From the NCBI RefSeq assembly GCF_036507355.1, contig NZ_AP027877.1: DNA of 64,000 nt, one strand, 5' to 3'. A model generated the notes under the pieces. That model made no database searches. It had not been told where the DNA came from and was given only the letters and a program-made list of their open reading frames with translations. The DNA is from Escherichia coli (GTDB lineage: Bacteria > Pseudomonadota > Gammaproteobacteria > Enterobacterales > Enterobacteriaceae). A program made the translations under genes and the position numbers. This document shows positions 51,583 through 53,866 of this stretch, piece after piece (the stretch's first letter is position 1; every line of letters starts with the position of its first letter).

Positions 51583-51691
51583 AAGTGCCTAATATGGCCG
51601 TAGTTGAGGCAATAAATAGAGGGACAAGTGACGTTAAGCTGAATTAGAGTAAATGGCGTGAGGACACACGCCATTCGAGGTTATAGTTTGA

Positions 51692-52006
51692 TTAATTTTC
51701 GAAAAATTGCTTCACAGCCCAGCCACCATGACCACCTGGAGTTATGAATGAAACAAAACCTTTGTCATCTACGCTCTGGATTTCTACCGTCATTGATTCA
51801 TCTAACACGCGACATTTATTGGATGTAATGAGACTCAGCATAGCCTGTTGGTCATTGTCCAGGATGTAACTGATCATCTCGTAAAAGTCAGTTAACTTTT
51901 TACAGTTAAATGTACCTTCTTTAAGTGTTGCGCTGTCTCCGTGACTTAGTGCGAATGCATTTGGCATCATTGCCACAAAGATGACGGTAACGAGTAGTTT
52001 TTTCAT
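51692..52006 (-). CDS. hypothetical small secreted protein
   Basis: 104 aa, signal peptide MKKLLVTVIFVAMMPNAFA; AT-rich surroundings. Confidence 0.5.
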   Translation of the reverse strand: MKKLLVTVIFVAMMPNAFALSHGDSATLKEGTFNCKKLTDFYEMISYILDNDQQAMLSLITSNKCRVLDESMTVEIQSVDDKGFVSFITPGGHGGWAVKQFFEN

Positions 52007-52015
52007 TTTAGCCTC

Positions 52016-52363
52016 TTATAATTCAGAACATTCACTGATGTTGTAAGTGCCTTTTCTACCATCATCGTTTACGAGATGTAGCACGAAGATGATGGGATTG
52101 GCATCAATGAAAGATACAGAGACGTTCCCGCTTTCGGTGCTATACATCTTTGCAATCTGTTTTTCACCAATATATGAGAGATCCCAACTCACTCCGTTCA
52201 AGCTAAAATGCATCTGTTTGCCGACAATATCGATGGAGGATTGTGCCGTAACGGTTTTCCCATTGCTGCCAATTTGACCCTGCTGAAGAGCATCACATTT
52301 ATAGGAGCTTGCATAAGTAGATAGAGGTAGTAGCAGAAGTGCAGCAAAAATTTTACTCTTCAT
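52016..52363 (-). CDS. hypothetical small secreted protein
   Basis: 115 aa, signal peptide MKSKIFAALLLLPLSTYA; 9 nt upstream of the previous ORF on the same strand. Confidence 0.5.
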   Translation of the reverse strand: MKSKIFAALLLLPLSTYASSYKCDALQQGQIGSNGKTVTAQSSIDIVGKQMHFSLNGVSWDLSYIGEKQIAKMYSTESGNVSVSFIDANPIIFVLHLVNDDGRKGTYNISECSEL

Positions 52364-53414
52364 ATTTTCCCTTTGCTTGGATTTGAGTTACCTATTTTGG
52401 GGTAGTCATTATAAAACTATTAATTAGTAAAACGAACAAGTTTTCATTTGTTTAGCAATGGTATTGTTTAGGTTTGAAATTATTACGTATTTTCATAGCA
52501 ATAGATTGGATAAACAGCAGTTCAGGGAACAAGTTGCACTATCTACATACTTTTCCGCTTTCCATTGCATGTTAGGTAATAGATAGCCTTTGCCCGTAAG
52601 ACTAAAAATATTAGAAATGACTCATTCGAATACCTTCTATTCACCTTAATATAGGTTTGATTATTGTAATCGTTTAATGTGTCTTATGGATTTTTTCCTA
52701 CTTTTCATTTGCATAATATAGGGGGCACAGCATGCTCTTGAAATTAATTATTAAAATATTTAAATTTTACAGCACACAACTACTTTTCGTTGTCTTATGT
52801 GTTGAACGTACTTCGAGTATAGGTAGGGTTGTATATATATTGCGTGGGTAGAGTTAGAATAGAGGAAGCATCATTTATAGAATATTCAAGAACGTTAGCC
52901 TGTGATCAATAAATAAAAATATCAAATGGTGTTCAAACATATTTTTCTATGAAAAATCCAGCCATCTATGATGAATTTTTAGATCCATTTTAATTAAAGT
53001 ATGATTATGAACCAAGATTTAGCCAAGAATGGTGGTATAGCGCGTATCCAATGACACCGGAAAACGCATCTATGAAGTCCTTATTTATCTCTATAAGAGG
53101 AAATCAACACTAATAAAATGTAGTGATGTAACATATCGAGCAGGTTGCTCTGATGCTGGTCTTCAACTGTGGCTTAAACAGCTATCAAACTTCGGTGTTA
53201 TTGAGATGAAAGAATTATCATTCTCAACTATCAATCTCAAAAAGCTAGAGAAAATAGACCTTAATTATTCCACTCTCTAAATTTATCTATTTATTTAAAG
53301 TAAAAATGAAAATATTATGGTATCAGCCACGTGGTGGTAACTGGTTTTTATGATCATAGGTACATATACAGGGAACCCTGGAAAACGAAAGTAATATATT
53401 GATGATTTCGTTTG

Positions 53415-53654
53415 TTATAACTTCGTGGTATCAAGTCCGGCGGCTTTGAGTCGCTCGGTAAGATTTCTCATTTTGCTGAACTCTGTAGCAAAGCTGGCTT
53501 TAAGTCCTACACCTTCGCAAAACTCTTTTGCCGTGACGTTTTTCAGATGGTCAGCGTATTTGATCATCTGGAGGTGCATTTCCATCGTTTGGCTATTTCG
53601 TGGTGCGCTGCTAATGGCTTGCTTAATGTTCTCGTAGATCTGGGTTTCTGTCAT
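53415..53654 (-). CDS. hypothetical protein
   Basis: ORF of about 80 aa (MTETQIYENIKQAISS...); no recognised family; low GC. Confidence 0.35.
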   Translation of the reverse strand: MTETQIYENIKQAISSAPRNSQTMEMHLQMIKYADHLKNVTAKEFCEGVGLKASFATEFSKMRNLTERLKAAGLDTTKL

Positions 53655-53866
53655 TTTTATCTCACCTATCAAATTTAGATAAATAATATAAATTAGCTAA
53701 TTAAGATAGTCTACAGTTTTTACCACCTGAATGATGGGTGTGAATTGTTTCTTTTTCATTACTGATATGGGGTACACAGTGAAGACGTAATGAATGGATG
53801 CGAGCTTGCATCTGCAAGTCACTTCCCCTAATCTGGCACAAAATATAGAGATTCAACCAAACGACT

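Follow-up and report, generated by a model that had tools for sequence, protein, structure and literature searches.

An AT-rich islet before thiM in Escherichia coli: a probable remnant of integrase elements that target the TPP riboswitch

An AT-rich islet lies between rcnR and thiM in the 64,000-nucleotide stretch of Escherichia coli DNA analysed here (contig NZ_AP027877.1 of assembly GCF_036507355.1; hereafter the window). It is very probably the immobilised, decayed remnant of small elements that encode a tyrosine integrase and insert into the thiamine pyrophosphate (TPP) riboswitch of thiM, most probably of two copies that once stood in tandem. Intact relatives of 7.7-13 kb occupy this site in E. 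coli and Klebsiella, in Citrobacter and in some ten further genera of Enterobacterales, and are bounded by two copies of the thiM TPP aptamer that share an 82-bp block of identity. The islet ends at position 53853, directly against this aptamer core (53854-53935) on the thiM side, and its backbone is homologous to that of the intact members: the genes for a 104-amino-acid (aa) and a 115-aa protein are 76-77% identical in DNA, the gene of a 79-aa regulator (rptR) together with the right end of the element is 85-90% identical, and a broken 92-aa gene is 74% identical in protein sequence. The islet is an ordinary decayed, fixed site-specific island; the riboswitch attachment site is its unusual part. 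A cis-regulatory riboswitch can act as an integration site as tRNA and tmRNA genes do, and as a site the aptamer has high conservation and internal symmetry, and the element repairs it. A full-text literature search of incomplete coverage returned no report of a riboswitch used as an attachment site.

Intact relatives at the thiM riboswitch

The intact relatives share a general layout of integrase (int), anti-phage cargo, resolvase, the 104-aa and 115-aa genes, a replication-like module and rptR. The cargo varies and lies between the integrase and the serine recombinase, a resolvase/invertase-type protein of 183-207 aa. In one intact E. coli element, rcnR is followed by the native spacer, an aptamer copy, the tyrosine integrase, an HNH gene and a 115-aa homologue (42% identical), and onward by HTH_31, resolvase, 60-aa, 239-aa HTH_36, 81-aa and 79-aa HTH-like genes, an aptamer and thiM. 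The best architectural model for the window is the PEC389 element, which reads int, a 191-aa gene, a TIR-STAND gene, resolvase, 104-aa gene, 115-aa gene and, further on, a DUF6998 gene, rptR, the riboswitch and thiM; its resolvase-104-115 arrangement is that of the window for these two genes, and at the DNA level the element matches the window with 76% identity in the 104/115 block and 85% in the right end. PEC389, EC20-72C-1 and K_EC180 are three further E. coli strains with this frame, each with its own cargo: the cargo of PEC389 consists of the 191-aa gene and an 871-aa TIR-STAND protein, that of EC20-72C-1 of an HNH gene and an AIPR/AbiU-like gene interrupted by IS1, and that of K_EC180 of GmrSD. 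Across the relatives the cargo is of anti-phage type (TIR/ThsB-like with PDC-S60, AbiU-like AIPR, GmrSD, mREase_II, and SIR2 in Citrobacter).

In Citrobacter freundii and Klebsiella pneumoniae, the genes homologous to the 104-aa and 115-aa ones likewise lie in islands beside thiM with a resolvase and a distal integrase, and the cargo of these islands comprises a TIR with a STAND nucleoside triphosphatase as well as SIR2, Beta_protein, M78 and HigB. The far flank of the K. pneumoniae island is a locus other than rcnR and the island is still bounded by two aptamer copies, so the elements target the thiM leader and not the stretch between rcnR and thiM in itself. Of 5,426 complete E. coli genomes, 222 encode a related integrase. 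A wider survey, with the integrase alignment as query and one genome per species, gave 15 loci, which lie in Lelliottia, Enterobacter, Erwinia, Citrobacter, Silvania, Atlantibacter, Pantoea, Pseudenterobacter, Franconibacter and Kosakonia and on one contig labelled as a Flavobacterium metagenome-assembled genome. An aptamer copy ends ~85 bp upstream of int at 13 of these 15 loci, and wherever the contig was long enough the far end was always a second aptamer followed by thiM. Tandem insertion and decay are common at the site, as judged from four loci (L023, L027, L034 and L035) that hold integrase fragments or extra aptamers beside intact elements, or alone beside thiM. A 7,956-bp 'rcnR-thiM' island with a type IV restriction-modification (RM) system has been tabulated before (S3 table) but not analysed further, with 'None' as its type of mobile genetic element and outside the 41 numbered hotspots (PMC10121019). 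The site is thus an unnumbered defence-island hotspot, occupied or scarred in ~10% of E. coli genomes and present across Enterobacterales.

The anatomy of the junctions was established by aligning the left and right attachment sites (attL and attR) of several elements with K-12 and with the window. At attL, element sequence that begins with GGCCGAAATTCGGCC and leads into int comes after the native 88-bp spacer and an aptamer that extends to GCGTAGGG; at attR, element sequence is followed by the aptamer, the native expression platform and thiM. In the mechanism that we propose, an intact element would integrate site-specifically into the 5' part of the thiM aptamer with duplication of ~82 bp, which would leave the native promoter and the left aptamer copy before the integrase gene, and the right end of the element with a rebuilt aptamer before thiM.

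In their terminal tyrosine integrase, direct repeats derived from a structured-RNA locus, variable anti-phage cargo, lack of conjugation genes and frequent decay, the thiM elements resemble the integrase-only islands found at tRNA, tmRNA and small-RNA genes, such as those of the rybB and ssrA hotspots (PMC10121019). They differ from these islands in that they target a cis-regulatory aptamer in an mRNA leader and not a stable RNA gene. Set beside phage satellites (PICI, P4-like), the thiM elements carry int and an HTH_36 replication-like gene, with no capsid or packaging genes annotated. Elements at tRNA-Thr (thrW) near proA in strains E32 (L005) and 2013C-3252 (L008) share the HTH_36 and 92-aa module with the thiM elements, and the E32 element shares the resolvase as well. 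These thrW/proA elements also encode major-capsid and baseplate proteins, so their relationship with the thiM elements may be satellite-like or mosaic.

Anatomy and decay of the islet

The order of genes around the islet is rcnB, IS1, rcnA, rcnR, islet, TPP riboswitch, thiM, thiD and yegX, and the features are the following:

50356-51189, minus strand: rcnA
51310-51582, plus strand: rcnR
51581-51645: left junction, made up of the two final bases of the hybrid rcnR stop and ~63 bp with no match to any fetched locus
51651-51675, minus strand: terminator-like hairpin or inverted repeat 3' of the 104-aa gene, with a terminator-like site at 51669-51656
51692-52006, minus strand: 104-aa gene, RefSeq WP_000735648.1 'outer membrane protein'
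52016-52363, minus strand: 115-aa gene, signal-peptide-like N-terminus, modelled as an eight-stranded beta-barrel
52364-52449, minus strand: conserved region upstream of the 115/104 operon, holding a TATAAT
52513-52605, plus strand: remnant of the 3' end of a tyrosine integrase gene (region of the catalytic tyrosine), with an in-frame stop
52835-52993, plus strand: C-terminal stump of an HTH_36 (replication-initiator-like) gene, found by tblastn
53008-53280, plus strand: pseudogene of an 81-92-aa small protein, frameshifted near 53045-53050
53415-53654, minus strand: intact rptR homologue, 79 aa (Pfam HTH_73 PF24718; PDB 9r2z)
53674-53713, minus strand: predicted rptR promoter and operator, promoter-like TAGACT-17-TATATT
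53655-53853, no strand: right end of the element, where the native thiM promoter region was
53854-53935, plus strand: attachment-site identity block of 82 bp in the 5' part of the TPP aptamer, the only (attR) copy left
53857-53953, plus strand: intact TPP riboswitch aptamer of thiM (RF00059 covariance model)
53988-54776: thiM, after the riboswitch and before thiD and yegX

What RefSeq lists as an 'outer membrane protein', a 'hypothetical protein' and an 'HTH-like domain-containing protein' becomes with this list an annotated fossil whose fragments are assigned.

A sequence-only reading of this DNA had described an AT-rich islet whose composition suggested horizontal acquisition, and both claims hold. 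The islet (51583-53853) has a guanine-plus-cytosine (GC) fraction of 0.364 against a window mean of 0.504 (standard deviation 0.043 over 2,271-bp windows), the lowest among the 618 equal-length windows of the 64 kb, and its gene-poor middle (52364-53414) falls to 0.317. In the alignment with K-12, homology breaks within the rcnR stop codon (51580/51581) and restarts at 53854, three bases ahead of the TPP riboswitch, from where 53854-53987 is 100% identical to K-12. The islet stands in place of the 88 bp that separate rcnR from the riboswitch in K-12-type strains. The rcnR stop is a hybrid, TGA in the window and TAA in K-12 and in strains with intact elements; the deletion breakpoint at 51578-51585 kept a stop for the rcnR reading frame. 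In a megablast search with 51583-53987, 5,424 of 5,426 complete E. coli genomes had the riboswitch part and 339 (~6%), chiefly O157:H7 and O55:H7, the full interval; the left half of the islet is limited to these 339. Horizontal acquisition is borne out by this distribution, by absence from K-12-type strains and by homology to integrase elements at the same site in many genera.

The islet shares 99.5% identity and all its lesions with the O157/O55 copy, so it had already decayed in a common ancestor, and it may best be described as O157/O55-type. The window is not O157:H7 itself, as its best match over 10 kb among complete E. coli genomes is 98.0-98.4% identical; the yehA/yehB segment is only 91-93% identical to O157. 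Taken with the IS1, these values for the region 46000-58000 may point to a relative of the O55/O157 lineage that is Shigella-like or otherwise unsampled. The O-islands of O157:H7 are reportedly strain-specific segments relative to K-12. The islet is like them a short AT-rich segment of the O157/O55 lineage that replaces a K-12 spacer, and unlike them in that its origin, insertion mechanism and fragment identities have been worked out.

That the interval is ancestral core sequence lost from K-12-type strains, or a spacer rich in AT with chance open reading frames (ORFs), is extremely improbable. The bare presence of ORFs speaks for it and nothing more, whereas strains with intact elements keep the K-12 spacer at attL, only 6% of genomes carry the islet, and length-conserved homologues with low ratios of nonsynonymous to synonymous substitution (dN/dS) lie inside integrase elements of other genera. 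A different view, raised as a possibility by the sequence-only reading, that the islet is silent DNA coated by H-NS whose ORFs are irrelevant in practice, is a serious possibility that falls somewhat short of even. H-NS prefers AT-rich horizontally acquired DNA, and the view draws on the AT-richness of the islet (GC 0.32-0.36, the lowest in the 64 kb). On the other hand, the promoter and operator of rptR are conserved and look functional, and transcription of thiMD must start in or cross the right end of the islet.

The remnant reading draws on the lesions themselves. The aptamer before thiM scores 71.2 bits against RF00059 (gathering score 54.3), which places it among the TPP riboswitches. 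It is the single RF00059 match within 49000-56000 at E<=1, and the whole window holds no copy of the native 88-bp K-12 spacer, so attL has been deleted. The integrase survives as its last 27 codons (52513-52593, plus strand) with an internal stop, and the HTH_36 gene as ~50 last codons of a gene of ~230-244 aa, again with an internal stop. By tblastn this stump is 38-42% identical to the L005 and L008 proteins, with which it shares the terminus DFxDPF followed by the stop, and its intact homologues match Pfam HTH_36. The decayed gene that the sequence-only reading had placed at 52990-53280 is indeed a frameshifted copy of the 81-92-aa gene (53008-53280, plus strand): its first ~15 codons are out of frame, the other 77 match the homologues of E32 and 2013C-3252 at 74% identity, and the region keeps no ORF of at least 30 aa. 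The HTH_36 stump and the integrase remnant go beyond the fragments listed in that reading, as does the origin from elements that target the thiM riboswitch. At the right end, the last 86 bp (53768-53853) are conserved among Klebsiella, Citrobacter and E. coli elements. With integrase, cargo, resolvase and attL gone, the islet cannot move.

In the lineage of the window, deletions would have taken attL, the native 88-bp spacer, integrase, cargo and resolvase. As no intact element has int to the right of the 115-aa gene, two tandem elements and three deletions make the simplest history. The first deletion would have run from attL through the resolvase of the left copy; the second would have spanned the junction of the two copies, from the right end of the left one across the middle attachment site and through most of the int of the other; and the third would have taken the right copy's cargo and what follows it, up to and including the 5' part of the HTH_36 gene. 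One frameshift and two nonsense mutations would then complete the decay of the integrase, HTH_36 and 92-aa remnants, with rptR and its operator, the two-gene exported-protein operon of the element backbone and the right end upstream of the thiMD riboswitch as survivors. Alternatively, a single element might have been rearranged by internal inversion or transposition, for example through a serine recombinase, and then trimmed by deletions. The relatives do encode a resolvase/invertase-type recombinase and their gene order near the 115-aa homologue varies between element subtypes, but no inverted repeats bracket the 104/115 block, tandem or remnant arrays are seen at the same site in other genera, and the tandem model needs deletions alone; we consider a single rearranged element improbable, and less likely than the tandem.

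Several points weigh against an origin from thiM elements. The order 104-aa gene, 115-aa gene, int remnant, HTH_36 remnant, 92-aa remnant, rptR matches no single intact element and needs either a tandem with three deletions or a rearrangement. No intact relative more than 90% identical to the left half (51583-52974) was found among the 5,426 E. coli genomes, so the immediate ancestor is unobserved. The integrase remnant is short, and ~0.6 kb of the islet (51583-51645, 52450-52512 and 52606-52834) matches no fetched locus. Finally, excision and integration of the relatives are inferred from empty and occupied sites, not observed.

Three further candidate origins were tried and rejected: a transposon or insertion sequence, as no direct or inverted repeats flank the islet; a prophage fragment, as there is no DNA match to 50,697 phage records; and a plasmid, as only rptR recurs on plasmids, beside other integrases. 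The PHROGs matches of the islet proteins are exact-length families of unknown function and uninformative, and the sole full-length plasmid match is a 439-kb record that bears the whole islet.

Two probably exported proteins and an orphan RptR

The sequence-only reading described minus-strand ORFs of 104 and 115 aa with signal peptides; both are present, at 51692-52006 and 52016-52363, and their N-termini are signal-peptide-like on inspection. The two genes are separated by 9 nucleotides, with a GAGG eight bases ahead of the second ATG, and lie in a conserved block (51646-52449) that runs from ~45 bp past the 104-aa stop to 86 bp before the 115-aa start. DNA homology upstream of the 115-aa gene reaches 52449 in the Citrobacter and PEC389 elements and only 52378 in Klebsiella; the region 52364-52449 is presumably the promoter of the 115/104 operon. 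At the other end of the block, a 23-bp match to the hairpin is found downstream of the 104-aa homologues in loci L009-L011 and L015-L017. The N-termini resemble Sec signals with AxA-type cleavage sites, MKKLLVTVIFVAMMPNAFA before LS and MKSKIFAALLLLPLSTYA before SS; neither contains a lipobox, and each mature part has two conserved cysteines. Judged by inspection and by the low-confidence N-termini of the structural models, both proteins are probably exported and periplasmic. A 104-aa gene also occurs without a 115-aa partner in Enterobacteriaceae loci L015-L017, in a different integrase element that does not lie at thiM; in that setting it diverges from an HTH_31 repressor, a resolvase and an Eco29kI restriction-modification system lie downstream of it, and the element encodes a DUF6538-type integrase and a DUF5906 primase-like gene.

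Both genes are real genes under purifying selection across the mobile family. Between the window and the PEC389, Klebsiella or Citrobacter copies, dS is 1.5-2.6 (near saturation) and dN/dS is 0.045-0.08 for the 104-aa and 115-aa genes, and over the three intact genes (104-aa, 115-aa and rptR) dN/dS is 0.03-0.08, ratios that contrast lineages bearing the mobile element and not the time since the islet was immobilised. At 51861 and 52224 the window has one private amino-acid change in each protein, Q49L (104-aa) and D47V (115-aa), both at residues conserved within the family, with no synonymous change relative to O157:H7 in either ORF; this hints at relaxed constraint, the changes being too few for a test. 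The homologues fall into 21 (104-aa) and 14 (115-aa) clusters at 90% identity, and of 1.8 billion proteins only 15 representatives matched a profile of the 115-aa protein, whose family is tiny and limited to these elements.

Against Pfam and NCBIfam the two proteins gave only sub-threshold noise (DUF4369 at E 0.007-0.011; BslA at E 0.06); of the three ORFs only the 79-aa product found a family, HTH_73/RptR, and PADLOC matched none of the three. The model of the 104-aa protein (predicted local distance difference test, pLDDT, 85) is a small SH3/Tudor/KOW-like beta-barrel with a two-helix hairpin, and was set aside as a functional clue since its structural matches are generic SH3/Tudor/KOW barrels that give no lead. 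The model of the 115-aa protein (pLDDT 79) is an eight-stranded barrel whose matches among solved structures include Brucella PliC (8.1), Salmonella PliC (8.0), the gonococcal ACP lysozyme inhibitor (7.7) and E. coli MliC/YdhA (7.3), with unrelated barrels scoring about as well and sequence identity at 6-10%. None of 11 members of the 115-aa family matches Pfam MliC at E<=10, so we keep the protein out of the MliC/PliC family. It resembles the PliC, MliC, PhiA and ACP inhibitors in being a predicted exported eight-stranded barrel of ~100 aa, and differs from them in lacking sequence similarity and in being paired with a second exported protein of SH3-like fold. Among viral folds (BFVD) its model has weak matches to uncharacterised phage 'lipoproteins' and barrels.

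These proteins raise the question of whether the surviving genes still serve the host as a domesticated module, a reading compatible with the remnant origin. The 115-aa barrel, perhaps with the 104-aa protein, would inhibit a periplasmic peptidoglycan hydrolase, such as a lysozyme from a phage (of the tail, or an endolysin) or a muramidase delivered by type VI secretion, and RptR would cross-regulate other islands controlled by TAGCTA. Spackle of phage T4, a small periplasmic inhibitor of the tail lysozyme, is a precedent, and a periplasmic hydrolase inhibitor would suit an anti-phage island. The signal-peptide-like N-termini, the conserved cysteine pairs and the strong purifying selection across the family argue for such a role, as does the survival of three intact genes and the rptR operator while all neighbouring element genes are broken. 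Against it stand the missing Pfam MliC and PADLOC matches, the two private changes with no synonymous change beside them, and the fact that dN/dS covers mobile-element lineages and not the period after immobilisation. Domestication is in our judgement doubtful, without being negligible, and we rate a periplasmic hydrolase inhibitor alike. The two tiny, strongly conserved and probably exported proteins and the orphan RptR are candidates for new anti-phage or envelope-protection functions.

The third ORF was reported by the sequence-only reading as one of 80 aa and unknown family. The ORF is there, with 79 aa and its ATG at 53654, and it belongs to a known type: it matches PF24718 at E 2.3e-30 (104.7 bits, cut-off 27) and PDB 9r2z, the RptR of enteropathogenic E. 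coli (EPEC), at E 1.5e-31 with 53 of 77 residues identical (69%). The match connects this ORF with a repressor whose characterisation dates from 2025. RptR, named 'RMS-proximal transcriptional regulator' and encoded in an EPEC defence island, is a homodimer that represses its own and the island promoter; it recognises three 9-bp direct repeats, TTTAGCTAA, with TAGCTA as the minimal site, tolerates TAGATA, TATCTA and TATATA, and needs for repression only two sites, adjacent or with one non-binding repeat between them (PMC12255303). The residues named there as conserved or functionally tested, E25, E58, S60, K61, L69, A72 and L74 (PMC12255303), are all kept in the window protein, and the dN/dS of its gene is 0.03-0.08.

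Three phased 9-bp repeats, TTTAGATAA, ATAATATAA and ATTAGCTAA, lie at 53674-53700, 20-46 bp upstream of the rptR ATG. They contain two core sites, TAGATA (TATCTA) at 53676-81 and TAGCTA at 53694-99, spaced by 18 bp, in a layout of site, non-site, site that overlaps the promoter-like TAGACT-17-TATATT. The operator block is nearly invariant in eight aligned homologous promoters, one of them on an IncY plasmid. Single TAGCTA motifs are no more frequent in the window than expected (7 against 8), and the operator is assigned by phasing and conservation, not by the abundance of this motif. From the sequence it is probable that rptR is still autoregulated.

The window protein thus shares with EPEC RptR its 79 aa, 53 of 77 residues, the critical residues and phased repeats over a promoter-like site. 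Unlike its EPEC counterpart, its gene has no Type I RM system or DarTG downstream and lies at the attR end of an integrase element. No RM or other defence operon adjoins it, the next feature being a convergent pseudogene; it is an orphan regulator without defence cargo behind it. A DUF6998 gene comes after rptR in the elements of PEC389, EC20-72C-1, Enterobacter and Atlantibacter (instances lie at 25894-26304 of L019, 27814-28245 of L018 and 10574-10978 of L022), and PADLOC classes it as a methyl-directed type II restriction enzyme (mREase_II, E 2e-93), an RptR-linked cargo type other than the Type I RM systems stressed in the RptR paper. Homologues also occur on plasmids: the IncY plasmid pCP53-92k (L006, 5006-6551) carries one with 89% protein identity and the same operator, and on plasmids of several incompatibility types an rptR homologue lies directly downstream of a different tyrosine integrase.

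The riboswitch leader, the integrase gene and thiMD

Because the target is a riboswitch in an mRNA leader, insertion would both swap the promoter of thiMD and put the native promoter and an aptamer copy before int. The attL copy of the aptamer scores 61-63 bits end to end. The 3' strand of its P1 is replaced by GGCCG, which is able to pair with four of the five bases of the P1 5' strand and which also opens the conserved hairpin GGCCGAAATTCGGCC, of which one compensatory variant, GGCCAAAACTTGGCC, was found. The int gene lies ~67 nucleotides behind a complete TPP aptamer in both the attL (integrated) and attP (excised) forms; an example of the leader is 15902-16070 of L019, with equivalents in L004, L012, L018 and L020-L035. 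RNAalifold predicts that, in a long helix, the int Shine-Dalgarno sequence (CAAAAAGGG) is taken up by CTCTTTTTG and the region of the start codon by TCATGAG, the leaders being too alike for covariation to decide. As a hypothesis, to which we give little credence, the int leader would be a TPP-responsive expression platform that wires the element into thiamine sensing; a promoter downstream of the aptamer may instead be the source of int transcription. If the hypothesis were true, synthesis of the integrase, and hence integration and excision, would respond to cellular TPP, and every lysogen, and every fossil like the window, would run thiMD from a promoter supplied by the element.

The alignments of attL and attR junctions leave thiMD without its native upstream region in the window and at all occupied sites, and the absence of the native spacer suggests that the thiMD promoter has been exchanged for an element-derived one. 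Only weak hexamers are seen in 53768-53853, where a consensus scan reports no sigma-70 promoter. Such a replacement in a vitamin-salvage operon could alter thiMD expression in O157:H7-type strains. Upstream of the riboswitch, four substitutions private to the window (53799, 53819, 53821 and 53832) fall within 34 bp of the conserved right end; one of them breaks the palindrome GCTTGC-N4-GCAAGC of O157 and PEC389, whose right arm in Klebsiella is GCGAGC. By their position, these changes could affect transcription of thiMD.

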